Positions 1,910-15,935 of a stretch of DNA of 64,000 nucleotides are shown here, one piece after another. The position numbers and the translations under genes were made by a program. Below the pieces are notes generated by a model. The model had not been told where the DNA came from and searched no databases. It saw only the letters and a list, made by a program, of their open reading frames with translations. The stretch lies in the IMG/VR virus record IMGVR_UViG_3300012007_000008, positions 1 through 64,000 of that record; one strand, 5' to 3'. Each line of letters starts with the position of its first letter. The stretch's first letter is position 1. The stretch comes from a virus (lineage: Duplodnaviria; Heunggongvirae; Uroviricota; Caudoviricetes).

Positions 1910-1912
1910 AAT

Positions 1913-2311: not shown

Positions 2312-2340
2312 AACCGAATAAAACTTAATATCTTGTTCTC

Positions 2341-2383
2341 AAAGATCTGATATTCTCAGGTCTTTTTTTATTGCCTTGGAGGT
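2341..2383 (+). terminator. intrinsic terminator
   Basis: hairpin AAGATC...GGTCTT followed by TTTTTTTATT. Confidence 0.45.
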
Positions 2384-2389
2384 GAACAT

Positions 2390-3160
2390 ATGTACGAAAA
2401 TCAGATTGTCGATGCGCGTTGGAACTTTAAGGGAAATACGAAAGTGGGCAACATTGCTACCTGGTCAACTCTTCCGTCCGACATGGTTTTTGTCTCTGAA
2501 AGATACGGCAAAGTGAAAGGGACTTGCTCAGATTGCTGCGAACATTGTGGGCATATCATAAAAGACGGAAAACGGCCGCCTTGCTATGTCTTTAAAAGTC
2601 ACAGATATCCGTCGGTGGTTGACTCTCAGGCTCGCAATACTCTTTCCATCAGGAATGATCCCGAGAAGGCGTTCCGCCAGCTCTCAGATTCTCTGAGTAG
2701 AAAGCGAAATCCGATTGTCGCTGCGCGTTTCGACCAATCCGGGGAGATCGAGAATAAAGTTCAGCATAACGGCATGTGTATGGTAGCAAGTGAGCATACA
2801 GAGACTCCTTTCTATATCTATTCTAAGAAGTATGGAGTGATAACTCCTGCTCTCGAAGCTGGTACTGTCCCTAAGAATTTCACTCATCTGTACTCGATCT
2901 GGCATGAACAAGGGATCAAGGAATTTCTTAAGGTAGCTCATCTGCCGAATGTCAAAGCATTTGTCTACTGCGATAAAAATATCGATCCCACCAACGGATG
3001 GGGCGTTGAAGAGTACGCCGCTCACGGTATCATCATTCAAACATTCTGCAAGGCATATGGAACGGACGGGAAAATGAACCATGATATCGTCTGTGAGAAG
3101 TGCAAGAAGTGTTTCAACAGAAGCAAGAAAGCAAAAGTGATTGGATGTCTATCTCATTAA
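2390..3160 (+). CDS. Cys-rich hypothetical protein
   Basis: 256-aa ORF, SD GGAGGTGA, cluster CSDCCEHCGH. Confidence 0.5.
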   Translation: MYENQIVDARWNFKGNTKVGNIATWSTLPSDMVFVSERYGKVKGTCSDCCEHCGHIIKDGKRPPCYVFKSHRYPSVVDSQARNTLSIRNDPEKAFRQLSDSLSRKRNPIVAARFDQSGEIENKVQHNGMCMVASEHTETPFYIYSKKYGVITPALEAGTVPKNFTHLYSIWHEQGIKEFLKVAHLPNVKAFVYCDKNIDPTNGWGVEEYAAHGIIIQTFCKAYGTDGKMNHDIVCEKCKKCFNRSKKAKVIGCLSH

Positions 3161-3395
3161 AGAAAGGAGGATAATTATGCGTATTAGATTTGAAACCGCG
3201 ACTCTACCTGACATTCCGGGCGGGAAAGTTCTGTTTATTCAAGGAGCGCACATAGTCGCATTTGAAGAATCAAGGATTGGAGGCAAGGATGCAACTGCTA
3301 TTTATCTGGATGGCGGGCATTGCTTTCATGTGAAAGGAAATGTTTTTGAAATAAACCGTAAATTGCAGAAACGAGGAGGTAACTATAGTGGCTGA
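3141..3395 (+). CDS. hypothetical protein
   Basis: 84-aa ORF, start overlaps upstream gene. Confidence 0.35.
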   Translation: MDVYLIKERRIIMRIRFETATLPDIPGGKVLFIQGAHIVAFEESRIGGKDATAIYLDGGHCFHVKGNVFEINRKLQKRGGNYSG

Positions 3396-3675
3396 TATAA
3401 ACAATTATTTCACGCTTGACGATATCAACGATGTTATCGAGACATTCGAAGATTTTCTCGAAAGATATAGCACGAGGATCCTGGCGTCCGATGAGGAATT
3501 GGCGGATAACGGAGAAACTCCGTACACGAATGACGCGAGGATTTACGGAACAGTATACGGAGATTTACAGGGAAGTTTGCTGGAACTATTCGAGAGAAAG
3601 GCGCTTGCCGGGAAGGTAAAGCCTGTAGTTAAAAGCTGGGAATCAGAAGTAGAAGAATGGATGGTAGAAAAATGA
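3388..3675 (+). CDS. hypothetical acidic protein
   Basis: 95-aa ORF. Confidence 0.35.
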   Translation: MADINNYFTLDDINDVIETFEDFLERYSTRILASDEELADNGETPYTNDARIYGTVYGDLQGSLLELFERKALAGKVKPVVKSWESEVEEWMVEK

Positions 3676-3995
3676 GATATGTAATACTGCAGCTTCCGCC
3701 GTCTCATAATGCGAAATATATGCATTACGACTACGTAAAGAAAAATGGATACGTGCCAAACCGGGAAGATTATGTCCTGGTTTATGTTGGACAGATGTGG
3801 GGAGAAAGCAGAGATGTAGAAAGCGAACTGGAACATATTTTCTGTAGACTCAACGCAGATGATCGGACCTATGACTATAGAGTTTGGAGTCCGTCAGTTA
3901 GCGATGTGATTGGTTTAGAAACCGCAAATGATCAATGGGAGTTTTATTACATAGACATGATCGGATTTAAGAAAATTTGGGAGGAAAACTTATGA
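3657..3995 (+). CDS. hypothetical protein
   Basis: 112-aa ORF. Confidence 0.4.
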   Translation: MDGRKMRYVILQLPPSHNAKYMHYDYVKKNGYVPNREDYVLVYVGQMWGESRDVESELEHIFCRLNADDRTYDYRVWSPSVSDVIGLETANDQWEFYYIDMIGFKKIWEENL

Positions 3996-4198
3996 AATAC
4001 GAACTGATTGTTAACGGAAACACTGGTTATTATCATTTGAACATTGACGGCGTCTATGCGATAGCGACGCACAATCTTGGATTGAATTTTCAACTCTACA
4101 GGGAAAACGAAGAACATACCAAAATTGCGGAAGGGATTTTGTCTTGGGACGCCCTCGATGAATGCATGAGGTGGGAGAGAAGAAGGTTTGCGGCGTGA
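3977..4198 (+). CDS. hypothetical protein
   Basis: 73-aa ORF. Confidence 0.35.
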   Translation: MGGKLMKYELIVNGNTGYYHLNIDGVYAIATHNLGLNFQLYRENEEHTKIAEGILSWDALDECMRWERRRFAA

Positions 4199-4210
4199 AA
4201 AGAGGATGAG

Positions 4211-4444
4211 ATGAACAAATCGAGAAGAGAAAGATTGAAAGATAGTATCCCTATGATCTCAAAATTAATGGATGTTATAGAGTCAATACGAGACGAAGAG
4301 CAGGAATCGTTAGATTCGCTACCGGGCAATCTATCAGAATCTGAAAGAGCCATGAGAATGGAAGAGATTATAGATTCACTTGATGAGGCGTGTAATAATC
4401 TTGATGACATAAATGCTACTATTAATGATATAATATATGGGTAA
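4211..4444 (+). CDS. hypothetical acidic protein
   Basis: 77-aa ORF. Confidence 0.35.
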   Translation: MNKSRRERLKDSIPMISKLMDVIESIRDEEQESLDSLPGNLSESERAMRMEEIIDSLDEACNNLDDINATINDIIYG

Positions 4445-4507
4445 GGAGGTGACTTAAATCTGAATTGACCAACTAAGAAAACAAACAAATAAAGGGAGGA
4501 CATAATT

Positions 4508-4729
4508 ATGTTCAAAAAAGTTAACGGAAATATATATGAATCCGATAACGGGTATGTCGTAGAGTTTCAGACGGTCGAAGGGAGCAAAGCCGCTTTGGTC
4601 GGGAAGAAGGCGGACAACGGAAGCACGAGGTTGCTGTTTATTGTTTCTGCGGAAGGGATTACGAGAAATAAGTTTTTGACACATTTAGAAGAGAATTTTG
4701 ATCAGTATTTAGATAAATATGCTAAATAA
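4508..4729 (+). CDS. hypothetical protein
   Basis: 73-aa ORF, SD AAGGGAGGA; followed by GC hairpin GGCCGG...CCGGCC at 4750-4775. Confidence 0.4.
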   Translation: MFKKVNGNIYESDNGYVVEFQTVEGSKAALVGKKADNGSTRLLFIVSAEGITRNKFLTHLEENFDQYLDKYAK

Positions 4730-4789
4730 TGATTGAAAAACTAGGCATAGGCGGGCCGGGATTCATAGTGATTCCGGCCTAAATAATAT

Positions 4790-5782
4790 TTGGAGGTGAA
4801 TATATTGACAATCCAAACAGGGAAAGCAGAGCATAGAGCAGAATCTGTGAAGAAAATTAAGGAGATGTTAAAAGACAAGCCAGATTTCGTGACTGGGTTT
4901 TATTATTACATGGTAAATTCAGGCAAGACCGCAAGTTATAGAACCCATGAGGCTTATTTGAAATACGTGATTTTATTCCTGAAAGATATAGATAAAGATA
5001 TATCTACAATTAATATGGATGATATTAGCAGATATCTTGCAGGCAAAGCATATAAAGACGACGGAACGGAAACGAGCGGCAGTTATAGGGTCGCCGTTTA
5101 TAGTGCGTTGAAAAAGTTCTTTTATTACTTGAATATTAGTGGTAAAATAAATAGTAACCCAATAGAGAATATTGAACGCCCAAAACCAAAAGCAGCGAGC
5201 CTTGTAGAGAGAACTTATCTTAAGCCGGACGAGATACAAAAATGCTTTGCATATGTCGGCAAGAGAGGGGGAACCTGGGAAAAGCGGAACAAAGCGATGC
5301 TTGTTATGTATTTCGCTACAGGCATCAGAAACACATGTCTCACTGAGATAAATGTTGACAACGTAGATTTCGAGAACAGGTGCGTCTACGTTATAGACAA
5401 AGGAACGAAGCCAAACACCGTTTATCTCGATGAAGAGAAAATGAATGTCTTAAGGGAGTGGATCGCGGACAGGGCAGAAAAGATGGTCGGGCACGCTCAT
5501 ACGAATGCTTTATTTATCAATAAAGAATACAAGAGAATCGAACCGGGAGGGGCGGCTTGGGTAATTAAGAATATTACTAAGAATATCGGACACAAAATCT
5601 CTCCACATAAAGCAAGAGCCTCATTCCTCACTAATGCATATAATTCGGGTATACCGCTTGATGTGGTGTCGAAGCTCGCAAACCACTCATCAACAAAAGT
5701 AACTTCAGATTGTTATATTCAGGGTCAAGATGAAAGGGTTAAAGAAGCTGGAATCAAGGCAACTGAATATCTTAAAATCTAA
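4790..5782 (+). CDS. tyrosine recombinase/integrase (true start possibly TTG 4805)
   Basis: C-terminal catalytic signature HKARASF (HxxR), LANHSS, and Tyr in DCYIQ; N-terminal SAM-like domain. Confidence 0.8.
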   Translation: MEVNILTIQTGKAEHRAESVKKIKEMLKDKPDFVTGFYYYMVNSGKTASYRTHEAYLKYVILFLKDIDKDISTINMDDISRYLAGKAYKDDGTETSGSYRVAVYSALKKFFYYLNISGKINSNPIENIERPKPKAASLVERTYLKPDEIQKCFAYVGKRGGTWEKRNKAMLVMYFATGIRNTCLTEINVDNVDFENRCVYVIDKGTKPNTVYLDEEKMNVLREWIADRAEKMVGHAHTNALFINKEYKRIEPGGAAWVIKNITKNIGHKISPHKARASFLTNAYNSGIPLDVVSKLANHSSTKVTSDCYIQGQDERVKEAGIKATEYLKI

Positions 5783-5796
5783 AGAGAGGTGATTGT

Positions 5797-6465
5797 ATGA
5801 GTCGTTTTAATATGACGATTCTTAGTACCAAAGAGATTTTATCTGGTTTGACAGAATTAAGAACCGGAATGAAGAAAGATGAATATTTAGACAAAGAATT
5901 CTCGGCCATATTAGAAGACTCAGAGAGAAGGATAAGATCTTGTGAATGGCGTGATTATACAAAAGAGAGGCCAAAAGAAAATATAAAAGTAGTCTTCAAG
6001 ATACCAGATTCTATATTTAATTCTCGTTGGGTCGGGGATTTTTTTGAGGATGATGCGCAAATTAAGAAGGACTGCGAAGAAGATGGCTACACTTATAAAG
6101 AAGGAGAACTACTATGGAAACCGTTTGAAACAGAATCTAAACTTTCTTTTGATCTTGTTTGGCGGAAAATGTTTATCCTAGAAAAAGGATTTAATGAAGA
6201 TGAATATATGAGAAATAAATACTCGAATTTGATTACCAATATAATGGAACGTGTTAATTCTGGAGAATGGAGAAATCTTAGGGGGTATAGGCCTGTTGAA
6301 AAAATGCCTGTAATCTATAAAGCTCTATATAAACATTGTGATGATTACTATAAGTACGGAGTATCTATGTATTATCCAGATTGTAATAAGATTATGGAGA
6401 TAAGTGACAAAAATCTCTTTCGTACCATCAAATGGAAACCGCTGGAAATAGAGGAGATTATATAA
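5797..6465 (+). CDS. hypothetical protein, tandem paralog A
   Basis: 222 aa; first ~110 nt of coding sequence ~95% identical at DNA level to the paralog at 6493. Confidence 0.55.
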   Translation: MSRFNMTILSTKEILSGLTELRTGMKKDEYLDKEFSAILEDSERRIRSCEWRDYTKERPKENIKVVFKIPDSIFNSRWVGDFFEDDAQIKKDCEEDGYTYKEGELLWKPFETESKLSFDLVWRKMFILEKGFNEDEYMRNKYSNLITNIMERVNSGEWRNLRGYRPVEKMPVIYKALYKHCDDYYKYGVSMYYPDCNKIMEISDKNLFRTIKWKPLEIEEII

Positions 6466-6492
6466 TACGAGAAGATTATAAGAGGTAATAAT

Positions 6493-7146
6493 ATGACTGT
6501 TCTTAGCACAGGAGAGATTTTGTCCGGGTTAAATATGTTCAGAACCGGAATGAAGAAAGATGAATTTTTAGATAAAGAATTCTCGGCCATATTAGAAGAC
6601 TCAGAGAGAAGGATAAGGTCTTGCGAATGGCGCGATTACATGATAGAAAAGCCCGAAGAAGGCACGAAGATTATTTTCAACTGCCCTAAATATTTATATA
6701 AGAAAGCTTATTTTTATGATGTTTATAAAAATAAATGTATGATGGAACAATATGCAAAATTTAACGGCCGTACATGTAAAGAAGGAGATTTGCTATGGAA
6801 ACCATTTGAGACAGAATATAGAATTCCTTTTGAAACAGTTCAGAGAAAACTGCTTATTATGAAAAGTATATTTGACGAAGATGAGTATATGCGAAACAAA
6901 TACTCGAATTTGGTTACAAATATAATAGAGCGCGTTAATTCTGGAGAATGGAAGATCCTTAGAGAATACATACCAGTTAAAGATATGTATATAATGTTTA
7001 AGGCATTGTATAAAAATAGTGATGACCGTTGGATGTATGGTGCGTCTTTGTATGTTGCAAAACAAAATAGGATTCTGAGTGTGGAAAGAAAAATAGATTT
7101 TCAGGTTATCAAATGGAAGCCATTAGAAATAGAGGAGCTTATATAA
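6493..7146 (+). CDS. hypothetical protein, tandem paralog B
   Basis: 217 aa; shared blocks EFSAILEDSERRIRSCEWRDY, LLWKPFETE, YMRNKYSNL, WKPLEIEE. Confidence 0.55.
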   Translation: MTVLSTGEILSGLNMFRTGMKKDEFLDKEFSAILEDSERRIRSCEWRDYMIEKPEEGTKIIFNCPKYLYKKAYFYDVYKNKCMMEQYAKFNGRTCKEGDLLWKPFETEYRIPFETVQRKLLIMKSIFDEDEYMRNKYSNLVTNIIERVNSGEWKILREYIPVKDMYIMFKALYKNSDDRWMYGASLYVAKQNRILSVERKIDFQVIKWKPLEIEELI

Positions 7147-7147
7147 T

Positions 7148-7744
7148 ATGCCGGGTAATACAGAAAACAAACTATTTTGGTGTATAGTTGCCTCGTTGAT
7201 TTTAATGTTTTTAAAAGGTGGATTTGTAGTAATAGCTGTATTGTGGGCGGTCTTTTTTCTATATATGCTACCAAAAGAAATAAAGATGAAAAACCACGCA
7301 GATGAAATCGCTGAGCTTAAAAAGAATCCAAATAAATTTAAAGCTGCCTTACTAAATGCGAAGGATATTTGCGATAAAGATATACATTTTGAGAGCAGTA
7401 GAGCAAATGCCGGACATTGGTGGTTTGAAGAGTTAGATCCAGAAACACGAGAATATATACGAAAAACTCCTTATTATGATCATCGTCTCTTTAAAAAAAT
7501 AAAATCGGCAGATCAATATATAACGGACCAAGATAAAAAATATATTAAAGCAGTTGAAATGTACGGAAAAGCGAATATTGATGCCGCAATATACGCTAAA
7601 AGAATCATAAACCGCGAAGTCGTTCTGTCTGACTATGAGAAAAGAAAATGGTGGTGGGATAAACTCACTCCGGAAGAGAGACGTTTTATACAGAGACTCG
7701 GTTATTGTAAAAACCCAGCATTTGATTGTATTATGAATTATTAG
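7148..7744 (+). CDS. membrane protein
   Basis: N-terminal TM segment; ends with TAG immediately followed by TGA. Confidence 0.5.
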   Translation: MPGNTENKLFWCIVASLILMFLKGGFVVIAVLWAVFFLYMLPKEIKMKNHADEIAELKKNPNKFKAALLNAKDICDKDIHFESSRANAGHWWFEELDPETREYIRKTPYYDHRLFKKIKSADQYITDQDKKYIKAVEMYGKANIDAAIYAKRIINREVVLSDYEKRKWWWDKLTPEERRFIQRLGYCKNPAFDCIMNY

Positions 7745-7876
7745 TGAGACGATGGTATATGATCTATCATCAGAATTGCGGGAACTCAATAACTAGTAGA
7801 TGAGTTAATCTTTCAAGAAAAACTGTATTTTACAACTATAATTCGGATTACAGGATATAAATAATAGCAAGAAATT

Positions 7877-7912
7877 ACCGTGGATCCGCCGGCCGGGTTC
7901 ACGGTTTTTTGT
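7877..7912 (+). terminator. intrinsic terminator
   Basis: GC-rich hairpin ACCGTGGATCCGCCGGCCGGGTTCACGGT followed by TTTTTT. Confidence 0.55.
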
Positions 7913-7944
7913 TACAGAAAATTAAAAATCCTGTAACATTTCTC

Positions 7945-7973
7945 TTGACACGAACAAATGTTCGTATTATAGT
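7945..7973 (+). promoter_or_regulatory. sigma70-type promoter with embedded operator palindrome
   Basis: -35 TTGACA, 17-nt spacer, -10 TATAGT; spacer holds perfect inverted repeat ACGAAC-AAAT-GTTCGT (7950-7965). Confidence 0.55.
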
Positions 7974-7980
7974 GGAAAAC

Positions 7981-8075
7981 GTAAAAGAGAGATCCATTAT
8001 AGGGCCGCCACCCTAGGATCTCTCACGAGTAAGAGCTGAAACGTGCCCAGCTCGTATGTTCATCATAGCATATCT
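7981..8075 (+). promoter_or_regulatory. structured 5' leader upstream of the sigma-like gene
   Basis: nested hairpins GAGAGATCC...GGATCTCTC around TAGGGCCGCCACCCTAG, and GAGCTG...CAGCTC. Confidence 0.3.
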
Positions 8076-8210
8076 GAGCACGTCTTTTCAACTCGTAATT
8101 CTCTACTTTCTAAACGAAAATAAAGCGTTTAGTCTACTTAGTTTGTCTCTATTTTTAGAAGATATAACTATAGATCCTTTTTGTTCACCAGAAAGAAGGA
8201 GGTCGAGATA

Positions 8211-9944
8211 ATGCCGAACATAGGCCTAGATGAAGTAACAGTGCAACCAGAAGATTGGGAAAAGTTCAAAACCGACACCCTTTTGCATTATTTTGGAAAT
8301 GGAGGAGCCGAAATAGCCAGGGTTTCTGACAGTATTCTCCGGAGCATTCACTACCACCCGAACGGAAGCAAGGAACTCGACGAATTCTATTCTCTCGCCG
8401 GGGCATTGTTCGAGGGAATTCTGGATAGTTGGGATAGAAAACATAAATTTGAATCGTTCTTATATATTTGCCTGTCAAACAGATTTAAGACATATCTTAC
8501 GGAGTTAACGGCCCAGAAGAGAGGAGGGAGGCAGATTGATAGGTCGCTATATGAGGAGGTTGGGGATGGATTAGTTCTTCAAGATACTATAGGCGGAGAA
8601 ATGGATTTTGATTTTTTGAGTCCAGAGTTGACGGACTATATCGGGAAACTTTCTGCAACACAGAAAAAGATTTTTTATATGTTGTATGAAGGATATTCGG
8701 CGTTTGAAATCCAGAAAGAGTTGGGTATTTCAGCAAAGAAATATCAAGAACTAATCCGGAATGCCAAACAGTATAAGAAGATCAAGTCGATTGTCAACGT
8801 AACCAACAAAAAGGTCGATGTAAAAACTAACAACGAGGAAGGTAAAGAGTTTATGCAGACAACTGAGACATCTAAAAGTGCAATCAAAACCGCGGCTCGT
8901 ATGGCAGAAGATCTTAATGATGAGACTATCCGCGATGATAACCAGATTCAGCGTGATTTTGTCTGGACCAATGTCATGATGGGGAACCTTATCGTAACAA
9001 CGCTTCTTGGTTATCTGATTCCGCCTGTAGTTATAGCAGAACAGAAATTGGATAATGGCTCCATCAAGTGGCTTCTCGACGGAAAACAGCGCTTGACTAC
9101 ACTCTCGATGTATCTTGCAAACGCATTTAGGATCTCAAAGAAAGTTGAGCATCCGTTTATTAGTTATCAGACAGTCAAGACGGATGAGAACGGAAATAAG
9201 GTTTACGACGAGAATAGACTTCCGGTTTATGAGGAGAAAACTTTCGACGTGCGTAACAAGAGATTCGGAGATCTCCCAAGAGAATTGCAGAAGAGGATCG
9301 AAGATTACGGAATCCGTTACGATCTTTATCTTGGATGTACGGCAAGCGAGATCGAGAGTCACATTCGCAGGTATAACACGTCAAGATCTATGAATCACAG
9401 CCAGAGAGGACTTACCTTCCTCGGATTGGATCTCGGCCTTAATTTGCGTGGAATTCAGAGAAAGAGTTTCTTTGCCAAAACATATAAGGAAAAAGATTTC
9501 TCGAATGGCGCCGTCCAGAGAATCATCATGGAATCCATTATGCTTATTGGATATCAGGATGCGTGGAAGTCTTCACCAGAAAAAATCGGAGAATATCTGA
9601 GTAAGAATGCAGATGGAAGTGATTTTGTCGAGTTTGCGGAATACGTAGATCGTATTGATGATATTCTTGACGACAAAACAAGAGAAATGTTCACGACGAA
9701 AGACTCGTTCCTGTGGTTCAAAATCTTCTCAGATTTCTCAGATCTCGGATACCCGGATGAAATGTTCAATGATTTTCTCAAAGCGTTTGATTCTCTTAAG
9801 AACACCAATATTGATGGAGAGACATTTGAATCCTTAAATTCAAGGTCTACCAAGATGGCATCGGTGATCGAGAAAAAGATTTCATATATTGAGGAGTTGA
9901 TGTTGCGGTATTTGGATAGTCAGAATAAAGAAAAAGCTTCGTAA
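8211..9944 (+). CDS. fusion protein: sigma-70-like regions 2 and 4 (N-terminal) plus DUF262/ParB-like domain
   Basis: region-4 HTH LSATQKKIFYMLYEGYSAFEIQKELGIS; DUF262 hallmarks IQRDFVW and LLDGKQRLTTL; SD AAGGAGG before ATG 8211. Confidence 0.6.
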   Translation: MPNIGLDEVTVQPEDWEKFKTDTLLHYFGNGGAEIARVSDSILRSIHYHPNGSKELDEFYSLAGALFEGILDSWDRKHKFESFLYICLSNRFKTYLTELTAQKRGGRQIDRSLYEEVGDGLVLQDTIGGEMDFDFLSPELTDYIGKLSATQKKIFYMLYEGYSAFEIQKELGISAKKYQELIRNAKQYKKIKSIVNVTNKKVDVKTNNEEGKEFMQTTETSKSAIKTAARMAEDLNDETIRDDNQIQRDFVWTNVMMGNLIVTTLLGYLIPPVVIAEQKLDNGSIKWLLDGKQRLTTLSMYLANAFRISKKVEHPFISYQTVKTDENGNKVYDENRLPVYEEKTFDVRNKRFGDLPRELQKRIEDYGIRYDLYLGCTASEIESHIRRYNTSRSMNHSQRGLTFLGLDLGLNLRGIQRKSFFAKTYKEKDFSNGAVQRIIMESIMLIGYQDAWKSSPEKIGEYLSKNADGSDFVEFAEYVDRIDDILDDKTREMFTTKDSFLWFKIFSDFSDLGYPDEMFNDFLKAFDSLKNTNIDGETFESLNSRSTKMASVIEKKISYIEELMLRYLDSQNKEKAS

Positions 9945-10030
9945 AAAGGACGGGGTTTCCGAAAAAATCTTGACTTAGATGTAACGGAAATCCCGTAGTT
10001 ATTATTATCAAGAAAAGGAGGAACCTAAAT

Positions 10031-10363
10031 ATGGCAAAGCCTAATAAAAATCGGCAGAGATTCTACGATGCGTATCAGAAACAGAATCGCAGAGAGAAGA
10101 ATGCCGAACGTAAGAAAGCAAAAAATTTGAAACATCAGGAGGAACTTAAAGCCCGCAGCACCGATCCTGTGATTCAGGAAAGGATGAAAGAAGCTCACGA
10201 TGTTCGGAAAGCAGACGCAAAAGCGCTGGGAAATGAACTGCGGACTCCACCAATGACTAGCAGGATAGGCGGTTTTAGAAGAATTATGGATCGTCTTAGT
10301 CACAAGCAGGAACTTGAAGAGAAAAAGAATAAGAAGCTTAAAGATAAACTCGAAAGGAGATAA
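10031..10363 (+). CDS. highly basic K/R/E-rich protein
   Basis: 110 aa, strong SD AAGGAGGAAC; coiled-coil-like charged sequence. Confidence 0.45.
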   Translation: MAKPNKNRQRFYDAYQKQNRREKNAERKKAKNLKHQEELKARSTDPVIQERMKEAHDVRKADAKALGNELRTPPMTSRIGGFRRIMDRLSHKQELEEKKNKKLKDKLERR

Positions 10364-10366
10364 ATA

Positions 10367-10810
10367 ATGGTACTCTGTGCGTCTGATATTATGAATTCTG
10401 TAAATGGTTTGGATTTTTTCAACACTATTAATACATGTTTGAGCAAGATCGTTTCTGTAAATATTATTAAAGAAGGTAAAGTAATCAGTTGCAAGTTCGC
10501 CGATGGAGATGAACAGAAGGCGGTATGTGACGACCATGATCATTATTCTTTAGAAAACGGAATCGCCGTTTGCGTTGCAAAACACGCGATGGGCGGATCA
10601 AGTGCATATAACAGAGCGATCCGCCAGGGTGTTCGTGTGTTTGAAGAGCAGGAAAAGAAGAAGGCAGATCTGGAAGAGCGGAAGAGAATCGAAGAAAACC
10701 ATAAGAGAAAGCACGATCGCTATATCGAGCGGAAGAGGAAAAGAGCGAGGGATGCCAGGGTTCAGGAAATGGCAGAGGCTTTCAAGCTGGCTCTGAAAGA
10801 GATGACTTGA
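10367..10810 (+). CDS. hypothetical protein with basic C-terminal tail
   Basis: 147-aa ORF. Confidence 0.4.
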   Translation: MVLCASDIMNSVNGLDFFNTINTCLSKIVSVNIIKEGKVISCKFADGDEQKAVCDDHDHYSLENGIAVCVAKHAMGGSSAYNRAIRQGVRVFEEQEKKKADLEERKRIEENHKRKHDRYIERKRKRARDARVQEMAEAFKLALKEMT

Positions 10811-10826
10811 ATGCAGGAGGGACATC

Positions 10827-11366
10827 ATGAAAAGAACGGTTAGAAACGGAATATTTGAAACAAATTCTTCGTCTGTTCACGTAATCGCTATTAGTAAAGA
10901 TGAGCCGAAAAAGCTGCCGATTTCCATTGCGTTCGGGCATGGGGAATTCGGATGGGAATTTCGTTATTATAATAATCCTTATTCAAAGGCAGATTATTTC
11001 AACGAAGCTATCCAGGCGATGTGTGGAAATAAATATTGGAACGATGAAGAAAAAAGAAAAGAAGAAGTCAAGGCGATACGGGACAAAATAATTGCTTGCC
11101 TCGCAGAAAGAGGAATCGAAGCCGTGTTTGAGCCTGATATATATGAGCAGTACGATTCTACGCGTTATTATGCAAGTGGTTATATCGATCATGGAACAGA
11201 ACTGATTGGCTGGGTTAATGAACTGTTGGAAGATACAGATAAACTAATTAGATTCCTGTTTTCAAGTGATTCATATGTAGAAACCGGTAATGATAATGTT
11301 GATTCGGAAGATATCCCTAAGGCTCCGGATGAAGATAAATATGACGTGTATGAAAAATGGAATTAA
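10827..11366 (+). CDS. hypothetical protein
   Basis: 179-aa ORF, SD GGAGGGA. Confidence 0.45.
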   Translation: MKRTVRNGIFETNSSSVHVIAISKDEPKKLPISIAFGHGEFGWEFRYYNNPYSKADYFNEAIQAMCGNKYWNDEEKRKEEVKAIRDKIIACLAERGIEAVFEPDIYEQYDSTRYYASGYIDHGTELIGWVNELLEDTDKLIRFLFSSDSYVETGNDNVDSEDIPKAPDEDKYDVYEKWN

Positions 11367-12275
11367 ATGAAAGGCGGCCGGATGGACAACGAAATTCTTT
11401 CAAAATATAAAAACGGAAACGTGTCTGTAACTCTAATGGCGGATGGATCGAAGATTCGGGAGACTGTTGACGATGAATTCCGTCCAGATTTTGCAGAGAA
11501 TATAGATATTACGATTAGCACAAGATGTTCTCATGGCTGCGATTATTGTTATGCTGGGTGTACTCCGAATGGGAAAGCCGCCAGCTTGGAAGATTATAAA
11601 ATTTTCGATACGATTCCAAAAGGAACGGAAATTGCTATTAATATAAATAGTGAGTTCCTTCCGGGATTCGAGAAATTCTTGGAACACATGAAAAATCAGG
11701 GAGTATTCGTCAACGCTACGATCCGTCAAGATGATTTCGAAGAGAATTACAACAGAATAATTCAATATTGCAAGAAAAAATTGCTGAGAGGAGTTGGTAT
11801 TTCACTTTTGAATCCGACTCCTTTGTTTATCCGGAGGGCATTATCTATTCCAAACGCTGTAGTTCACGTAATAAACGGAATTGTTACGAAAAAACAACTT
11901 GATCGGATGGCGGATATAGGATTGAAATTACTGATTCTTGGTTACAAAAATGTTGGGCGCGGAGTTGGATACCAGAAAAAACAAGTTGTAGAAATCAGGA
12001 ATAATTACGACTGGCTGAAAAAGAATTTGGACGAATATATTCCAAAGTTTAAAGTGGTCGCATTCGACAATTTGTCACTTGAACAACTTGAAGTAAGAAA
12101 TCGTCTTAGTGAAGAAGAGTGGGAAAGCTTCTATCAGGGAGACGAAGGAACATCGACATTCTTTCTGAATCTGGCAGAGGGATACTTTGCAAGAGACTCT
12201 TTGTCTAAGGTTCATTATCCGATCAGAGGAACTGTTATTGATATGTTTCATGTAATTCAAGATGCAAATAGATAA
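11367..12275 (+). CDS. radical SAM enzyme, substrate unknown
   Basis: CxxxCxxC motif CSHGCDYC. Confidence 0.6.
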   Translation: MKGGRMDNEILSKYKNGNVSVTLMADGSKIRETVDDEFRPDFAENIDITISTRCSHGCDYCYAGCTPNGKAASLEDYKIFDTIPKGTEIAININSEFLPGFEKFLEHMKNQGVFVNATIRQDDFEENYNRIIQYCKKKLLRGVGISLLNPTPLFIRRALSIPNAVVHVINGIVTKKQLDRMADIGLKLLILGYKNVGRGVGYQKKQVVEIRNNYDWLKKNLDEYIPKFKVVAFDNLSLEQLEVRNRLSEEEWESFYQGDEGTSTFFLNLAEGYFARDSLSKVHYPIRGTVIDMFHVIQDANR

Positions 12276-12492
12276 TCAGATTTACGTGTTTCCTTCAGTT
12301 TTTGTTATTTTCCGAAAAATAGAGGGGATAGATTATTACTTAACTGAGAATGTAATGTTGACAAGAGATATTCGTGAAGCGAAATTGTTTGATGCCGAGT
12401 CGGCAGGAGAAACCTCAGCGGCTTTGGATATTCTGTACGGAAAGGGAGTTTTTGAAACGGCGATTATGCGATCCGTATGGCGGCTGCAATAA
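12262..12492 (+). CDS. hypothetical protein
   Basis: 76-aa ORF. Confidence 0.3.
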   Translation: MQIDNQIYVFPSVFVIFRKIEGIDYYLTENVMLTRDIREAKLFDAESAGETSAALDILYGKGVFETAIMRSVWRLQ

Positions 12493-12595
12493 ATAACCAT
12501 CAGATGGGGCTGGTGTTTTAAATAGAGTTAATTCAATTACCGCCTTAGGGCGTTTATATATATGAAACTAAAAATATAGATAAGGAGATAACTTT

Positions 12596-13540
12596 ATGGC
12601 TTTTAAGAAAGCGAAGAGAGAGCAAGTATGGCTAAAGATACTTCTTACTGGACCCTCTGGATCAGGCAAGTCGTACAGTGCGCTTAGGCTTGCAACAGGG
12701 TTAGCACAGAAGTGTGGGTCAGATATTGCATACATTGGAACTGAGGGTTCGAGGGATAAGTATTACGCAAACGAGTTTCAATATGATCTAAATCAGTTAA
12801 GCAAAGATGGAAATCCGAGAACATATGAAGATTTCTCTCCGGAATCATATATTCACAATATCGAAGAGGCTGTTAATGGCGGGTACAAGGTCATAGTGAT
12901 CGATTCACTTTCACCAGAATGGACTTATATCAATGAAGTTCATGATGCGATGAAAGGAAATTCGTTCCAGAATTGGGGCCGTGTCAAGCCGCGCCATGCG
13001 ATGCTCATGGAGTATATTATGACAAGTCCAATTCATATTGTTGCTTGTGCAAGAGGGAAAGATGCATGGGTTCTTGAAGATAACAACGGGAAACAAGTAC
13101 CTCGAAAGGTCGGAATGGGAGCACAGCAAGACAAAGATTTGGTCTACCAGTACACCGTGTCATTTACTCTAAACGATCAAGACAAACATACATTCGAGTG
13201 TGATAAAGATAATACCCACCTTTTTAGTGGAATATTTGGAAAGCAGCTTACCGAGAAAGATGGAGAGGCTCTTTATGATTGGGCGAATGATTCTGATGTA
13301 CCAGCAACTGTGAGTGAACCGAAAAAGTTTGAGGCTGCGCAGATCAGCGACGATGAAAAGCTTACCACCGCAAAACAGACGATTGTATCTATGGCGGTTC
13401 AGCTTGGCGGGACGAAAAACGCTGCACTGATGGCGGAGCTTAAGAAGGTAGCACCCAACGGAAATCCGAATGCAATCAAGGATCTTGCCACCGCGGAAGC
13501 AGTAATTAAGGCGCTAAATAGCATCCAGCCGATTGGCTGA
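12596..13540 (+). CDS. phage AAA/RecA-like ATPase (Sak4-type)
   Basis: Walker A GPSGSGKS; sits directly upstream of SSB as in phage recombination/replication modules. Confidence 0.65.
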   Translation: MAFKKAKREQVWLKILLTGPSGSGKSYSALRLATGLAQKCGSDIAYIGTEGSRDKYYANEFQYDLNQLSKDGNPRTYEDFSPESYIHNIEEAVNGGYKVIVIDSLSPEWTYINEVHDAMKGNSFQNWGRVKPRHAMLMEYIMTSPIHIVACARGKDAWVLEDNNGKQVPRKVGMGAQQDKDLVYQYTVSFTLNDQDKHTFECDKDNTHLFSGIFGKQLTEKDGEALYDWANDSDVPATVSEPKKFEAAQISDDEKLTTAKQTIVSMAVQLGGTKNAALMAELKKVAPNGNPNAIKDLATAEAVIKALNSIQPIG

Positions 13541-13561
13541 TCATAAAAGGAGATAGAAAAT

Positions 13562-14038
13562 ATGAACGTTGTAGCACTTGTAGGACGTCTCGTGGGTGAT
13601 CCCGAGATTAGATATAGCCAGGGCGCGAATAGTACAGCCTTCGGGAATTTCACTATTGCGGTCGACAGAAACGTAAAGAGAGATCCCAATAACCCCGATC
13701 AGGTTACTGCGGATTTTCCGAGAATTCGCGTATTCGGGAAGACGGCAGAGTTTGTGCAGAACTACTTCCACAAGGGAATGAGGATTGGAATTACAGGCAG
13801 AATTCAGACCGGAAAGTACACGGACAAGAATGGACAGACGGTTTATACAACCGATGTCGTGGCTGACAGAGTCGAATTCGTCGAGAATAAGAATGGAGAC
13901 GGCGGCGGGAACCAGTTTAATCAGCAGCCACAACAGAATAACGTTTATGGCCGCCAGAATGATCCAGGAAACAATTATTATAACGGTGGGTTTACAAATA
14001 TCCCTGATGGAGTAGACGAGCAACTTCCGTTTAATTGA
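13562..14038 (+). CDS. ssb: single-stranded DNA-binding protein
   Basis: OB-fold N-terminus, Gly/Gln/Asn-rich linker, acidic tail DEQLPFN. Confidence 0.85.
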   Translation: MNVVALVGRLVGDPEIRYSQGANSTAFGNFTIAVDRNVKRDPNNPDQVTADFPRIRVFGKTAEFVQNYFHKGMRIGITGRIQTGKYTDKNGQTVYTTDVVADRVEFVENKNGDGGGNQFNQQPQQNNVYGRQNDPGNNYYNGGFTNIPDGVDEQLPFN

Positions 14039-14093
14039 TATTGAGAAGTAATAGGAGAGGCCAAAACCTCTCCTATAATTTTAAGGAGTAATT

Positions 14094-14561
14094 ATGAAGT
14101 GTAAGTATAGTCATTGTAAACATAAAACAAAGGAAATCCCGAAAGGCGAAGAAATCTTGGTAGGAAAGTCCTCATACTACCATCAAGATTGTTATGAGGA
14201 AATAGAGACAATAAAAAATATTATAGATACATATGTTAAAAAGGTTGATTCTCATCCAATAATGTCTTTGCTTAGAAAAGTTATCAATGAGATTATATAC
14301 AAGCATAATGTTGATGCAAATTTTTTGCTGTTTGCTCTTAATTACTGTATCGATCAGGGCTGGAATATAAGATACCCTCAGGGATTATACTATGTTGTAA
14401 AAAACAAGGAAGCAAATCAGAAATGGAAACAAATGATTTCATCGGAGTACAAGAGTCGTATTAAAAAAATGAAGAATGATATGAAAGATATTAATGAGGA
14501 AGAAAATACGTTTGAGTACCGAATGCAGAAAGCAGTAGGCTTCGATGATATTTTAAGATAA
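14094..14561 (+). CDS. hypothetical protein with N-terminal Cys/His cluster
   Basis: 155-aa ORF, CKYSHCKHK...HQDC. Confidence 0.4.
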   Translation: MKCKYSHCKHKTKEIPKGEEILVGKSSYYHQDCYEEIETIKNIIDTYVKKVDSHPIMSLLRKVINEIIYKHNVDANFLLFALNYCIDQGWNIRYPQGLYYVVKNKEANQKWKQMISSEYKSRIKKMKNDMKDINEEENTFEYRMQKAVGFDDILR

Positions 14562-14574
14562 AGGAGGTGAATAA

Positions 14575-15933
14575 ATGGACGTGAGCGATATTAATGACAT
14601 TCAGGCTGAGGCCGGTGTAATTGCGACATTGATATATCACCCAGATTTTATCCTTCATTCGGATTATTTGAAGCCGGGATACTTTTATAACGTTGAGAAC
14701 GGATGCCTTTATTGGGCAATTCAAGAATTAAGCAAAGCAGGAATTGAAAATATTGACGCATTAAACCTCACAAGTGTGATAAATAGCAATAGGGCAGTCA
14801 AAAGGAAACTAGATGAATATAATATCGTAAATTTGCAAGAGTATATAAATATGGCGCAGTATGCGGCCAGGCACACTCTTGAGGAATATAAATTACTGGT
14901 CAATATCGTAGTTGAAAATAGTTTTAAAAGAGATCTGATTAAGGCGACAACGGAAATCCAGCGTGAGTGTCATAACGAGGAAATTGATTTATCAAAACTA
15001 AATCAGATTTCAAATGACAAAATGACTTCACTGACGGAAAAGTATATAACGGGGAAGGAAGTAAAACTTCTTGGCGAACAGATAGATGAAATTTGGGATA
15101 AGATAGAGAATCAAGATCTTTCAAGGCGGCTACCATCAAAATTTGATTTGTTCAATAAATATTTTTGCTTTGAACCCGGAGAGTTGATATTGTTGACGGC
15201 ACGTTATAAAACTGGAAAATCTGTGTACCAAATGAATGAATTGATACATAAACTAAAGGCGGGTGTGCCATCTTTGTATATAGATACGGAAATGAGCACG
15301 ATTACGTTTACAAAAAGGCTGATTTCAAGTGTAACAGGAATTCCGTTTGAAGTAATTCGAGATAAAACATATAACGATCAACAAAATGAATTAATTCACA
15401 AGTGTCTGAATTGGATTAAGACTCTTCCGTTAGTTCACATGTATTTACCGGATCCTAACATGAATGAAGTATATTCCGTCTGCAAAATTTTAAAATATAA
15501 AATGAATCTTGCATTTGTGGTTTACGATTACCTTAAATCATACAACGAAGACGCTTATACCAATTCTGCTTTGTTAGGGCAAATGGCAGATTTCTTAAAA
15601 AATAAAATTGCCGGGGAACTAGATTTGGCAGTCCTCTCGGCGGCTCAGCTAAATAGAGACGACATGATAGCCAACTCCGATAATATAGCAAAGGCAATTT
15701 CAACTGGCATTTATTGGAGATTCAAAACTCCCGAAGAAATCATGAATGATGGCGGTCTGGATGCCGGAAACATAATTGCTTATATAAATATCAACAGAAA
15801 TGGGCCGCAGACAGACGAGGATGAAGCAATCTTCTTTAATTTTGACGGAGATAGGCAAAGGATTACTCAGGCAAAGATACAGAAAAAAGATATTCAGAGG
15901 ACACCTTTTGACAGAAACAAATCGGGAGGATAA
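14575..15933 (+). CDS. DnaB-family replicative helicase
   Basis: DnaB N-terminal domain; Walker A GELILLTARYKTGKS; RecA-like C-terminal domain. Confidence 0.85.
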   Translation: MDVSDINDIQAEAGVIATLIYHPDFILHSDYLKPGYFYNVENGCLYWAIQELSKAGIENIDALNLTSVINSNRAVKRKLDEYNIVNLQEYINMAQYAARHTLEEYKLLVNIVVENSFKRDLIKATTEIQRECHNEEIDLSKLNQISNDKMTSLTEKYITGKEVKLLGEQIDEIWDKIENQDLSRRLPSKFDLFNKYFCFEPGELILLTARYKTGKSVYQMNELIHKLKAGVPSLYIDTEMSTITFTKRLISSVTGIPFEVIRDKTYNDQQNELIHKCLNWIKTLPLVHMYLPDPNMNEVYSVCKILKYKMNLAFVVYDYLKSYNEDAYTNSALLGQMADFLKNKIAGELDLAVLSAAQLNRDDMIANSDNIAKAISTGIYWRFKTPEEIMNDGGLDAGNIIAYININRNGPQTDEDEAIFFNFDGDRQRITQAKIQKKDIQRTPFDRNKSGG

Positions 15934-15935
15934 TC

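Follow-up and report, generated by a model that had tools for sequence, protein, structure and literature searches.

The gene considered here encodes a protein in which a predicted sigma factor is followed by a ParB-like DUF262 domain, and it raises the question of what a phage would do with such a combination and what turns its expression on. A first-pass annotation had read the fusion as a regulator or as a defence/anti-defence switch. The gene lies in a 64-kb stretch of DNA from a large temperate gut phage, which we refer to as the window, and its relatives sit inside the chromosomes of Lachnospiraceae. These are among the most abundant bacteria of the human gut and their prophages are common; to our knowledge the induction of these prophages is largely unexplained. 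So far as we are aware, the ParB/DUF262 fold has hitherto been linked to chromosome partition, restriction and defence, and here it is placed in a predicted transcription-initiation factor.

Gene, Family and Genomic Context

The features of the locus are collected in Table 1. The ATG at 8211 was chosen as the start codon: an AAGGAGG sequence (8196-8202) ends 8 nt before it and in two relatives, L001 and L090, translation begins at the matching ATG. On these same grounds a TTG at 8181, with which the frame opens in the list of open reading frames (8181-9944), was dropped. A small leader reading frame (8056-8211) was also discarded, since in L001 the matching place is interrupted at once by a stop codon.

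An identical protein is encoded on 174.8-kb contigs. A nucleotide search of 50,697 phage records returned no match, and a protein search of phages gave a single one, in the uncultured 176-kb phage MT835469.1, with 93% of the protein covered. Source databases give members of the family no label, the label 'hypothetical protein' or, for a BFVD/UniProt relative, 'DUF262 domain-containing protein'.

Table 1. Features of the sigma-DUF262 locus, in window coordinates (aa, residues of the protein)
Feature	Position	Strand	Details
Intrinsic terminator of upstream operon, possibly bidirectional	about 7877-7911	+	12-bp stem, 7 GC pairs, T-run
Sigma-A-type promoter	7945-7973	+	TTGACA 7945-7950, 17-nt spacer, TATAGT 7968-7973; 11/12
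Predicted LexA (SOS/Cheo) box	7951-7964		CGAACAAATGTTCG; within the 17-nt promoter spacer
5' leader, strongly structured	~7980-8210	+	~231 nt; MFE fold, conserved blocks in L001 and L090
Nested GC hairpin, 5'-proximal	7987-8024	+	GAGAGATCC...TAGGG-loop-CCCTA GGATCTCTC
Predicted antisense promoter facing the LexA promoter	8062-8091	-	TTGAAA, 18-nt spacer, TGnTATGAT; 10/12, extended -10
Predicted Shine-Dalgarno-sequestering hairpin	8173-8202	+	GATCCTTT pairs with AAGGAGGTC; RNAalifold of window, L001 and L090
Sigma-DUF262 fusion CDS	8211-9944	+	577 aa
Sigma-70-family module	8211-8810	+	N-terminal ~200 aa
Subdivision of sigma module			sigma-2 ~aa 13-103; 3.2/4.1 linker ~aa 104-137; sigma-4 HTH ~aa 138-198
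Disordered linker	8799-8861	+	pLDDT < 50 at aa 197-217
ParB/Srx-fold DUF262 domain	8871-9380	+	motif I QRxxxW, motif II DGxQR, motif III xxxN
All-helical C-terminal domain, ParBDB/NsnA-C-like	9381-9941	+	secondary structure of predicted model; nuclease motif absent
Long hairpin directly 3' of stop codon	9950-9996	+	conserved; arms covary in L001 and L090

The family comprises at least 203 clusters at 50% identity, with members in large gut phages and in the chromosomes of cultured Hungatella, Eisenbergiella, Enterocloster and Clostridium asparagiforme strains; the genome loci are mostly from Lachnospiraceae, and a second, word-indexed protein search using the alignment added almost no members. 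Across 86 viral and 67 genome loci the sigma and DUF262 modules always accompany each other, either fused or encoded side by side, and the pairing of the two is obligate. The N module directly precedes DUF262 in the genome loci and in every viral locus for which enough sequence is available. Among the genome loci 53 are fused and 14 split, the split forms of relatives end or begin within the region of the disordered linker, and in L028 the two genes overlap as ATGA. The existence of both forms suggests a 1:1 partnership of the sigma and DUF262 parts.

The phage is temperate: the window contains two integrase genes (4790-5782 and 51995-53233), and relatives lie within Lachnospiraceae chromosomes. 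The sigma-DUF262 gene heads a replication module (AAA_24, SSB, DnaB, DnaG, PolIII-alpha). The genes downstream encode proteins of 110, 147, 179 and 302 aa, none of them an ATPase; a conserved upstream partner ('gene X') and the four downstream genes gave no informative family match, and neither an NsnB ABC ATPase nor an NsnC effector is among the adjacent genes. Pairing and position are retained even among very different phages that have no conserved neighbouring genes. Next to the sigma-DUF262 gene and divergent to it, 43 of the 67 genome loci and 3 viral loci carry a gene for a protein of 870-1230 aa in which a GADxDGD motif is invariant; this gene is a member of phrog_8308, and its profile matches RDR2/QDE-1-type (YonO-like) polymerases. 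MT835469.1 encodes both this polymerase and the sigma-DUF262 protein, and the polymerase gene was not found in the 64-kb window. The idea that it is a constant companion was dropped because cultured Enterocloster and Thomasclavelia phages have the polymerase and lack the sigma-DUF262 gene.

Control Region

The terminator that sits just before the promoter, scored at 7877-7905, is the best within positions 1-20000, and its counterpart in L001 scores on both strands. The promoter, called near-consensus in the first-pass annotation, is indeed the top sigma-70-type match in the first 20 kb and is conserved in L001 and L090. Its spacer had been described as a perfect palindrome; the palindrome (7950-7965) is real, with exactly complementary 6-bp arms (ACGAAC/GTTCGT), but its 4-nt centre, AAAT, is not self-complementary. 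The sequence CGAACNNNNGTTCG is found exactly once in the 64 kb, and the box is the sole exact occurrence of CGAAC-N4-GTTCG in the window. It conforms to the CGAAC-RNRY-GTTCG pattern of the Firmicutes LexA regulon, overlaps the promoter and is conserved upstream of orthologues, so that the operator proposed in the first-pass annotation can be assigned, from its sequence, to the Firmicutes LexA/SOS box type.

Across the family GAAC-N4-GTTC boxes are concentrated approximately 10-fold upstream of the gene. In the viral set (29 clusters) 22 of the 26 exact boxes fall in 49 kb of upstream zones, with 598 kb searched, and in the genome set 66 of 76 lie inside 105 kb of such zones, with 793 kb searched. 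At least one exact box is present in 41 of 57 genome loci; in the remaining 16 none was seen within 1.7 kb upstream, a point against the LexA reading. The 78 unique boxes have the consensus centre RNRY, the centre having been left free by the search pattern, and pairs of boxes lie 28-34 bp apart. In L094 boxes are located 67 and 95 nt upstream of the start codon. Both the RNRY centre and the pair spacing agree with validated LexA sites of B. subtilis and SPbeta (PMC8270828). The family-wide conservation of a Firmicutes LexA box therefore points to host LexA, and not to an unknown phage repressor, as the protein that would bind the spacer box. LexA need not be the sole switch, since the SPbeta prophage is not induced when lexA alone is deleted (PMC8270828).

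The leader has a minimum free energy of -74.2 kcal/mol vs -47.5 ± 4.4 kcal/mol for shuffled sequences (z = -6.0), and its 5'-proximal hairpin is found both in the MFE fold and in the RNAalifold consensus of the three sequences, where it is nearly invariant. An RNA from the predicted antisense promoter would run from ~8055 leftwards to ~7875; in L001 and L090 the one further promoter-like match is this same site, at the corresponding place of the alignment. The hexamers of this promoter coincide with invariant blocks of the leader, so that part of the leader conservation is due to the promoter and not to RNA structure. Rfam searches, run with gathering thresholds on the window and at E <= 5 on the leader, left the leader without a match and ARAGORN reported no tRNA, so that a known riboswitch or tRNA can be discounted here. 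No second copies of the conserved leader blocks were found across the rest of the window. The leader is specific to the clade to which the window belongs; in most relatives the boxes lie 15-120 nt from the start codon, and in others tRNA genes and an extra gene occupy the space between box and start. The long structured leader with GC hairpins that had been noted at the outset thus exists in the window, as the z score and the nested hairpin indicate, but was overstated in that it is not a family trait and owes its conservation in part to the antisense promoter.

The Sigma Module

In the window protein Sigma70_r4_2 of Pfam matches aa 140-186 with 24.1 bits, under the cut-off of 25.7, and ECF-type sigma models of NCBIfam match aa 70-186 (E 1.7e-7), again under their cut-offs. 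That all of the protein's own matches to sigma models, from Pfam and NCBIfam, are sub-threshold counts against the sigma reading.

A profile of the N module, built from 73 sequences, was searched against the PDB and its strongest matches are exclusively sigma factors, the best being C. difficile SigA (7l7b_F, E 2.4e-10). The alignment with SigA includes region 2.2-2.4, skips domain 3 and then takes up the 3.2/4.1 'SLDxPxG...GD' motif, where SxDAPxG...TxGD, the consensus of the family, lies opposite SLETPIGeeedshLGDfI in SigA. Among 37 relatives Pfam recognizes Sigma70_r2 in 13, r4_2 in 5 and Sigma70_ECF in 2, and the stand-alone sigma reading frame of L028 exceeds the Pfam cut-off for region 2. 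All of the elements expected of a sigma-70 family member of the group 3/4-like kind (sigma-2 plus sigma-4) are present, namely region 2, the region 4 HTH and the 3.2/4.1 linker. By homology the N-terminal module is a true sigma-70-family module, and as such it would bind core RNA polymerase. The first-pass annotation, which took the N-terminal ~200 aa for an ECF-like sigma factor with a region-4 HTH and named profile searching as the check, is borne out by the PDB matches and by the Pfam matches of relatives. No phage-specific promoter motif that the sigma factor might read emerged from k-mer enrichment in the intergenic regions of the window, and repeat and k-mer searches for such a motif gave only Shine-Dalgarno-like words.

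The DUF262 and Helical Domains

Pfam places GmrSD_N/DUF262 at aa 242-368 with E 1.4e-15, over the curated cut-off, and the two stretches on which the first-pass annotation had based the same assignment can be read directly in the sequence, QRDFVW at aa 247-252 (nt 8949-8966) and DGKQRLTTL at aa 290-298 (nt 9078-9104). Nucleotide-binding motifs I-III are all three invariant in the family, and a DUF262 N-domain with these motifs is what is found in GmrSD-type restriction enzymes. Structural neighbours of the C module in a fold comparison include ParB, Noc, KorB and PadC. The C module shares the ParB/Srx fold with the ParB/Noc/KorB clamps; its motifs (QRxxxW, DGxQR) belong to the DUF262 type. A search of PDB sequences with the full-length family profile (E <= 1) returned no DUF262 structure, and such structures were found by fold comparison only. 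With a pTM of 0.46 for the structure model, the arrangement of the domains relative to one another is uncertain.

The invariant residues of the C-terminal helical domain, for which NsnA-C/GmrSD-M serves as comparison (PMC12065111), are mostly hydrophobic. There is no Pfam match to a DUF1524 HNH/His-Me nuclease, the all-helical C-terminus being without a recognisable nuclease motif. The best PADLOC match is Menshen NsnA (E 8.6e-14), covering the DUF262 part only. By inference, the DUF262 module would act as an in-cis regulator or a DNA-targeting partner of the sigma module.

Proposed Mechanism and Alternatives

The whole is best explained, with a probability that we put at roughly 0.58, by a phage sigma factor that is released from LexA repression and sets lytic transcription going. 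This explanation builds on what is established above, namely which domains are present, that they are obligately paired, that SOS boxes accompany the gene and that its context is temperate. Because hundreds of gut Clostridia phages and prophages share the combination of gene and LexA site, the locus is probably a damage-triggered lytic switch. In the lysogen LexA would occupy the spacer box of the strong sigma-A promoter and keep the gene off, with the antisense promoter and the predicted hairpin at the ribosome-binding site probably dampening leaky expression. Upon DNA damage, RecA-stimulated self-cleavage of LexA would allow the promoter to fire, after which the sigma module would use its regions 2, 3.2 and 4 to bind host core RNA polymerase and redirect it to phage promoters, a regulon most plausibly made up of the downstream replication and nucleotide-metabolism genes. 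The ParB/DUF262 and helical domains, an obligate partner whether fused or encoded by the next gene, would bind nucleotide and DNA and may either gate the sigma module in cis, as do some C-terminal extensions of ECF factors, or hold it on phage DNA. A more elaborate version, rather unlikely in our estimation, has the sigma factor permanently tethered to a nucleotide-gated ParB-like DNA sensor or clamp and competent only on the phage's own DNA, be it replicating, damaged or chemically marked. If true, the tethered sigma would be a one-polypeptide counterpart of T4 gp55-gp33-gp45 and would embody a new principle, in which promoters are recognized under licence from an NTP-dependent DNA-tracking domain. 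Given how often a YonO-like polymerase gene lies divergently beside it, the gene may also have a role in a handover of transcription to that enzyme.

ParB, Noc and KorB use an HTH as a site-specific DNA-binding domain, and the sigma-4-type HTH might do likewise in a protein that is not a sigma factor at all, a ParB-like NTPase acting as DNA-binding regulator or partition/replication factor that loads on phage DNA and silences or organizes it after induction. The presence of ParB, Noc, KorB and PadC among the structural neighbours, the place of the gene at the head of the replication module and the DNA binding reported for the helical domain after DUF262 in SspE (PMC12065111) would all fit. However, region 2 and the 3.2/4.1 linker are kept besides the HTH, which is sensible only for contact with core RNA polymerase, region 2 reaches the Pfam cut-off in relatives and a repeat scan showed no parS-like repeats, so that we consider this alternative unlikely. 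It is quite improbable that the protein belongs to defence or counter-defence, as a prophage-borne Menshen/GmrSD-like sensor that detects foreign or modified DNA or as a decoy or inhibitor of host DUF262 systems. The PADLOC match to NsnA, the varied N-terminal DNA-binding domains of type II NsnA proteins (PMC12065111) and an AbiH gene adjoining the chromosomal locus L094 speak for such a role; against it, neither NsnB/NsnC genes downstream nor a DUF1524 nuclease are seen, the N-terminal domains of NsnA are reported to be region-1.1-like and not sigma-2 plus sigma-4, very different phages retain pairing and position although their neighbouring genes are not kept, and a LexA-repressed gene silent in the lysogen has the wrong logic for prophage-encoded immunity. 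The 'regulator' of the first-pass annotation is thereby supported and its defence part is not, the gene being conserved, predicted to be SOS-wired and the first of the replication module in temperate phages.

Two further explanations retain parts of the scheme. That the protein is a specificity or loading factor for the phage's YonO-like single-subunit RNA polymerase, and not for the host enzyme, is suggested by the frequency of the divergent gene and by MT835469.1, which has both; we nevertheless hold it to be highly improbable in view of the cultured phages with the polymerase alone, its absence from the window, the fact that the docking elements for sigma regions 2 and 4, on beta-prime and beta, belong to multisubunit polymerases, and the nearness of the boxes to the sigma start codon, as in L094. 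GAAC-N4-GTTC might instead be the operator of a phage repressor whose sites resemble LexA boxes, which would make sigma-DUF262 an ordinary early gene under immunity control. L001 and L004 do have MrpR-like genes (SPbeta master-repressor fold) a few kb upstream, and GIL01 encodes LexA-like and LexA-assisting proteins (PMC6182141, PMC4551915). Core, RNRY centre and spacing are, however, kept across clusters of 25-35% protein identity with no common neighbours, so that a conserved host factor fits better than fast-evolving phage repressors, and no LexA-type Pfam domain is recorded around the gene in the 174.8-kb contig loci or in ten further window proteins; we give this explanation little credence.

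A LexA-derepressed phage sigma factor, our preferred reading, would imply a circuit from LexA through phage sigma to lytic genes that is shared by at least 203 clusters. If DUF262 gates or targets the sigma module, this would be a new way of sigma regulation and a new job for the fold.

Comparison with Known Systems

ECF41 and ECF42 factors consist of sigma-2 and sigma-4 with a C-terminal extension that regulates in cis and replaces a separate anti-sigma factor, the known extensions being SnoaL-like or TPR domains. Sigma-DUF262 likewise has sigma-2 and sigma-4 covalently joined to a C-terminal domain, but its extension of ~350 aa combines a ParB/DUF262 NTP-binding domain with a helical one of DNA-binding type, and it is phage-borne. 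T4 late transcription (gp55 sigma, gp33 and the gp45 sliding clamp) offers an analogy only, as the ParB-like domain is not a PCNA-type clamp. Unlike the DUF262-DUF1524 type IV restriction enzymes GmrSD, BrxU and SspE, the protein is without DUF1524/HNH, is phage-encoded and sigma-joined, and is predicted to be SOS-induced. With Menshen NsnA it shares the ParB-DUF262 plus ParBDB core, the helical part being judged by secondary structure only, and an added N-terminal nucleic-acid-binding module, optional in NsnA (PMC12065111); it differs in having a complete predicted sigma factor in place of a sensor domain, in its lytic-cycle gene logic and in having no NsnB/NsnC.

Phage promoters with overlapping boxes for host LexA are known from SPbeta, where aGAACnnnnGTTCt boxes are paired ~30 bp apart (PMC8270828), and from GIL01 (PMC4551915). 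In GIL01 LexA represses early promoters directly with gp7 as helper, whereas here the predicted LexA target is a sigma gene, which would add a step at the level of the transcription machinery.

The closest parallel in logic is SigN (ZpdN) of pBS32 in B. subtilis, a mobile-element sigma factor with a strong sigma-A promoter that is directly LexA-repressed, that is switched on by DNA damage and whose regulon consists of the element's replication and nucleotide-metabolism genes (PMC6751061). A tblastn search with the window protein against 72,556 plasmid records, in which pBS32 is assumed to be included, matched the DUF262 part only and never the sigma part, so that no BLAST-level similarity to plasmid-borne sigma factors, SigN among them on that assumption, was detected. 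SigN has an autoregulatory promoter of a kind not found for sigma-DUF262, the paper on SigN mentions no ParB-like partner (PMC6751061), and the hosts are Bacillus and Lachnospiraceae, respectively. Common to both are the mobile-element sigma factor, the LexA-boxed sigma-A promoter and a long upstream region with further promoters (PMC6751061). A LexA-repressed sigma factor on a mobile element is already known, and sigma-DUF262 would be a new variant thereof.

Locus Layout

The sigma-DUF262 reading frame is preceded by a terminator, a promoter and a leader (see table). The promoter is as close to consensus as the first-pass annotation had claimed and is the top scorer in the first 20 kb of the window, while the real start of the ORF is the ATG at 8211, with AAGGAGG ending 8 nt before it, a choice that is supported by the identical start codon in relatives.

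Features of the sigma-DUF262 locus (window positions unless a relative's locus, L number, is named)
Feature	Position	Strand	Details
Intrinsic terminator, strong	7877-7905 plus T-run		First part in region 7877-9944
Sigma-A-type promoter	TTGACA 7945-7950; TATAGT 7968-7973		17-nt spacer; 11/12, near consensus
Leader	Between promoter and ORF		~231 nt
Antisense promoter	8091 to 8062	-	TTGAAA, 18 nt, TGnTATGAT; 10/12, extended -10
sigma-DUF262 gene	8211-9944	+	577 aa
Hairpin, long, conserved	9950-9996		Directly after stop; ACGGGGTTTCCG ... CGGAAATCCCGT, inner ATCT/AGAT stem
Fe-S/radical-SAM-like gene	11367-12275		Three genes downstream; CxxxCxxC; phrog_16999 'Fe-S oxidoreductase', E 1.1e-28
nrdD pieces	25609-26652 and 28337-29323
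Group I intron	26594-26850		Rfam RF00028, 70.1 bits; splits anaerobic ribonucleotide reductase gene nrdD
Tyrosine integrase	51995-53233		Then intergenic region with repeated CTGAAACA motifs and terminators
Class-V aminotransferase gene, truncated	53593-54468	-	Lacks about the first 88 profile positions
Gene X	L017 8886-9494; L045 2794-3459; L028 8478-9107
YonO-like polymerase gene	L094 1923-5612; L025 7018-9747	-	44 further loci

Sigma and DUF262 Modules

The first-pass annotation had read the N-terminus as a sigma factor with a region-4 helix-turn-helix (HTH) and the remainder as DUF262, and both assignments hold. Taken singly, the window protein is sub-threshold, scoring 24.1 bits against Sigma70_r4_2 (cut-off 25.7) and E-values of 1.7e-7 and 3.2e-5 against TIGR02985 and TIGR02937, both under their cut-offs; it matches PHROG 1740, 'RNA polymerase sigma factor', at 1.5e-7. 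The family-wide evidence nevertheless settles the matter, identifying the N-terminal module from its sequence as a sigma factor. In a search of all PDB sequences with a profile built from 73 non-redundant N modules, the strongest matches were all sigma factors, which dominate the list, with C. difficile SigA best (E 2.4e-10), followed by sigma-A/RpoD (B. subtilis, cyanobacterial, mycobacterial and E. coli), SigB, RpoS, FliA and sigma-H. The alignment to SigA covers region 2.2-2.4, skips domain 3 and begins again from the region 3.2/4.1 motif, where the family consensus reads SxDAPxG...TxGD and SigA reads SLETPIGeeedshLGDFI. Pfam recognizes Sigma70_r2 in 13 of 37 diverse relatives, r4_2 in 5 and Sigma70_ECF in 2, and the stand-alone sigma ORF of one relative, L028, lies above the region 2 cut-off. 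In an AlphaFold model of the whole protein (mean pLDDT 80.5) the N module comprises sigma-2 of four helices, a low-confidence linker and the HTH bundle of sigma-4, the inter-domain geometry being unreliable at a pTM of 0.46.

The C-terminal module consists of a ParB/DUF262 domain and a helical domain and lacks a nuclease. Pfam places GmrSD_N at aa 242-368 (E 1.4e-15), and the noted hallmarks QRDFVW and DGKQRLTTL lie at aa 247-252 and 290-298. The DUF262 motifs have been defined as QRxxxW, DGxQR and FxxxN (PMC12065111); counterparts of motif I (Q247, R248, W252), motif II (D290, G291, Q293, R294) and motif III (I385, R387, N389) are invariant in 37 relatives of ~30% identity, so that nucleotide binding is probably kept. 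Residues 390-577 are all helical, with invariant positions that are mostly hydrophobic, and no DUF1524/HNH match was found in the C module; the protein is not a GmrSD-type enzyme. The window's clade lacks a further C-terminal domain, of ~145 aa, that most relatives possess.

The modules form an obligate pair. With one HMM per module, every ORF in 86 viral (IMG/VR) and 71 genome (GTDB) loci was scanned. Both modules, the N module directly upstream, are present wherever a locus has enough sequence, either as one ORF or as two adjacent ORFs divided precisely at the disordered linker (aa 197-217); among genome loci 53 are fused and 14 split, and in L028 the split genes overlap as ATGA. Across 1.84 billion cluster representatives, scanned exhaustively with HMMER, 203 matched at E <= 1e-30, 376 at <= 1e-10 and 840 at <= 1e-3, the best 150 being about half full-length fusions and half DUF262-only partners. 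Bacillus phages carry DUF262-only relatives without sigma, and the pairing is thus a specialisation. The great majority of genome loci, several of them within complete chromosomes, belong to Lachnospiraceae or other, related Clostridia (Eisenbergiella, Hungatella, Enterocloster, C. asparagiforme, Lachnospiraceae 28-4, E. plexicaudatum, Petralouisia, Lactonifactor), and the viral contigs are mostly 90-180 kb. Neighbour genes are not conserved across the family, and the gene is absent from the cultured phages of a 50,697-record collection. Source databases leave the protein nameless or 'hypothetical protein', and a BFVD/UniProt relative is called 'DUF262 domain-containing protein'.

SOS Box and Leader

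CGAAC-RNRY-GTTCG is the established LexA/DinR consensus of Firmicutes. It is fitted by CGAACAAATGTTCG in the promoter spacer, and CGAAC-N4-GTTCG occurs just once in the 64 kb. The 'perfect palindrome' claimed for this spacer is exact over the 6-bp arms ACGAAC/GTTCGT, but its AAAT centre is not palindromic. The operator is an SOS box, a predicted LexA site, and no other feature of the locus is as well conserved. Validated sites of SPbeta and B. subtilis (PMC8270828) and the sigN site (PMC6751061) show the same consensus. Counting exact GAAC-N4-GTTC matches, with the upstream zone taken as 1.7 kb before the sigma module and expectations from a uniform spread, we find 22 of 26 in the upstream 49 kb of 29 non-redundant viral clusters (598 kb; expected ~2) and 66 of 76 in the upstream 105 kb of the genome set (793 kb; expected ~10). 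At least one box is present in 41 of 57 genome loci with enough upstream sequence. The 78 unique upstream boxes have the consensus aGAAC-A(A/T)A(T/C)-GTTCta, with R at centre positions 1 (76/78) and 3 (69/78) and Y at position 4 (71/78), a centre that the search pattern did not impose. Box pairs are frequent, 28-34 bp apart and bracketing the promoter, as in the relatives L002 and L003 (TTGACC-17-TATAAT), an arrangement like that of the SPbeta yolC/yolD boxes (PMC8270828).

The long structured leader that had been pointed out is genuine in the window, where it folds far better than shuffled sequences (z = -6.0) with a nested GC hairpin at its 5' end (7987-8024), but it is not a family trait, the boxes of most genome loci lying 15-120 nt from the start codon. 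Leader and antisense readings are based on three close relatives. Their consensus fold has a hairpin pairing the ribosome-binding site, which, with just three similar sequences, is a prediction rather than evidence. Two invariant leader blocks are the hexamers of the minus-strand promoter, which faces the LexA promoter and which recurs at the aligned position in the window's close relatives, L001 and L090, with no third promoter-like site in the intergenic region; the L002 and L003 leaders have a weaker minus-strand site (9/12) in roughly the same place. The predicted antisense RNA of ~180 nt would overlap the promoter as well as the initial 75 nt of the sigma mRNA, and could stop at the upstream hairpin, which in L001 scores as a terminator on both strands. 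The facing promoters are a plausible safeguard against leaky expression, and over-produced SigN is reported to be toxic (PMC10601692). The long hairpin behind the stop codon has no U-run, and its arms covary in L001 and L090.

Genome Context

An identical protein is found on contigs of 174,817 and 174,889 bp. Its gene is preceded by numerous small genes and a tyrosine recombinase (4790-5782) and followed by four genes without an informative family match, one of them the Fe-S/radical-SAM-like gene, then by AAA_24, SSB, DnaB, DnaG and PolIII-alpha genes and, farther along, by the intron-bearing nrdD, nrdG, Thg1, RNA ligase, TnpB, dUTPase and a second integrase. The stretch 51995-54468 looks like attP beside a host-gene fragment, or an attachment-site remnant; together with the integrases this marks the phage as temperate, which suits SOS control. 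Several other elements were noted: tandem paralogues at 5797-6465 and 6493-7146 (72-76% nucleotide identity), the latter with no Pfam match on scan; a TnpB/IS605 OrfB-type gene at 46930-48123 (HTH_OrfB_IS605, OrfB_IS605, Cas12f1-like_TNB); and GGTTCGAATCCTCACCGCCAG at ~39690-39730, which resembles a tRNA T-arm and acceptor 3' end and where neither ARAGORN nor Rfam called a tRNA.

Many large viral relatives hold tRNA-Gln(UUG), with or without tRNA-Met, Leu or Ile, in the 1.0-1.5 kb after the SOS promoter and ahead of the sigma gene (L017 8566-8853; L012, L016, L028, L039, L067, L083), and these would be SOS-inducible phage tRNAs. Most large viral clades, the window's excepted, also have between SOS promoter and sigma module a conserved gene of ~200-220 aa, gene X, with no Pfam match and a sole PHROG match, of the L017 copy, to an unknown-function family. 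MrpR-like genes (MrpR_N_CB and MrpR_C_cat, the SPbeta master-repressor fold) occur in L001 (1402-2289) and L004 (1135-1968 and 7612-8475), elements that look SPbeta-like in their regulatory parts. They lie upstream of the sigma-DUF262 gene, and in L004 the gene comes after a RepA_N plasmid-type replication gene.

Mechanism

The best-supported reading is that of a LexA-gated phage sigma: LexA would gate its production and the sigma would redirect host RNA polymerase to phage genes. The 64 kb covered of the 175-kb genome yielded no cognate promoter motif. The operator might instead belong to a phage repressor, yet the same box is kept among proteins 25-35% identical and in elements with unrelated neighbours, which argues for host LexA rather than phage-specific repressors. 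The sigma could also be a specificity factor for another enzyme. A gene of 870-1230 aa (phrog_8308) lies divergently upstream at 43 of the 67 genome loci and at 3 viral loci, with an invariant GADxDGD and profile matches to RDR2/QDE-1-type polymerases. It encodes a YonO-like single-subunit RNA polymerase, homologues of which head the late operon of Enterocloster phage PMBT24. Cultured phages with such a polymerase and no sigma-DUF262 gene indicate, however, that the two are often neighbours but not mutually dependent.

A ParB-like DNA organiser using a sigma-type HTH is another rival reading, but from known sigma structures the conserved 3.2/4.1 linker suggests contact with core RNA polymerase and not a mere HTH protein. 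A defence or counter-defence sensor is a further alternative: the top PADLOC match is Menshen NsnA (8.6e-14). The C-module layout resembles the 'ParB-DUF262 + ParBDB' core of NsnA, DndB, GmrSD and SspE (PMC12065111), here in a module without a nuclease. For DUF262 beside a LexA-gated sigma we favour a role in regulation in cis or in targeting, as suggested by obligate 1:1 pairing, motif conservation and analogy to ECF sigmas with C-terminal extensions and to sigma/anti-sigma operons.

The literature searched yielded no description of DUF262 joined to a module of sigma-2 and sigma-4. Each part has been described before: a mobile element is known to encode a sigma under LexA repression, DUF262 is known as an NTPase that senses DNA, and some sigmas are known to bear C-terminal extensions. 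Their combination is new, and the precedent for the proposed LexA-gated phage sigma is the SigN circuit of the B. subtilis plasmid pBS32.
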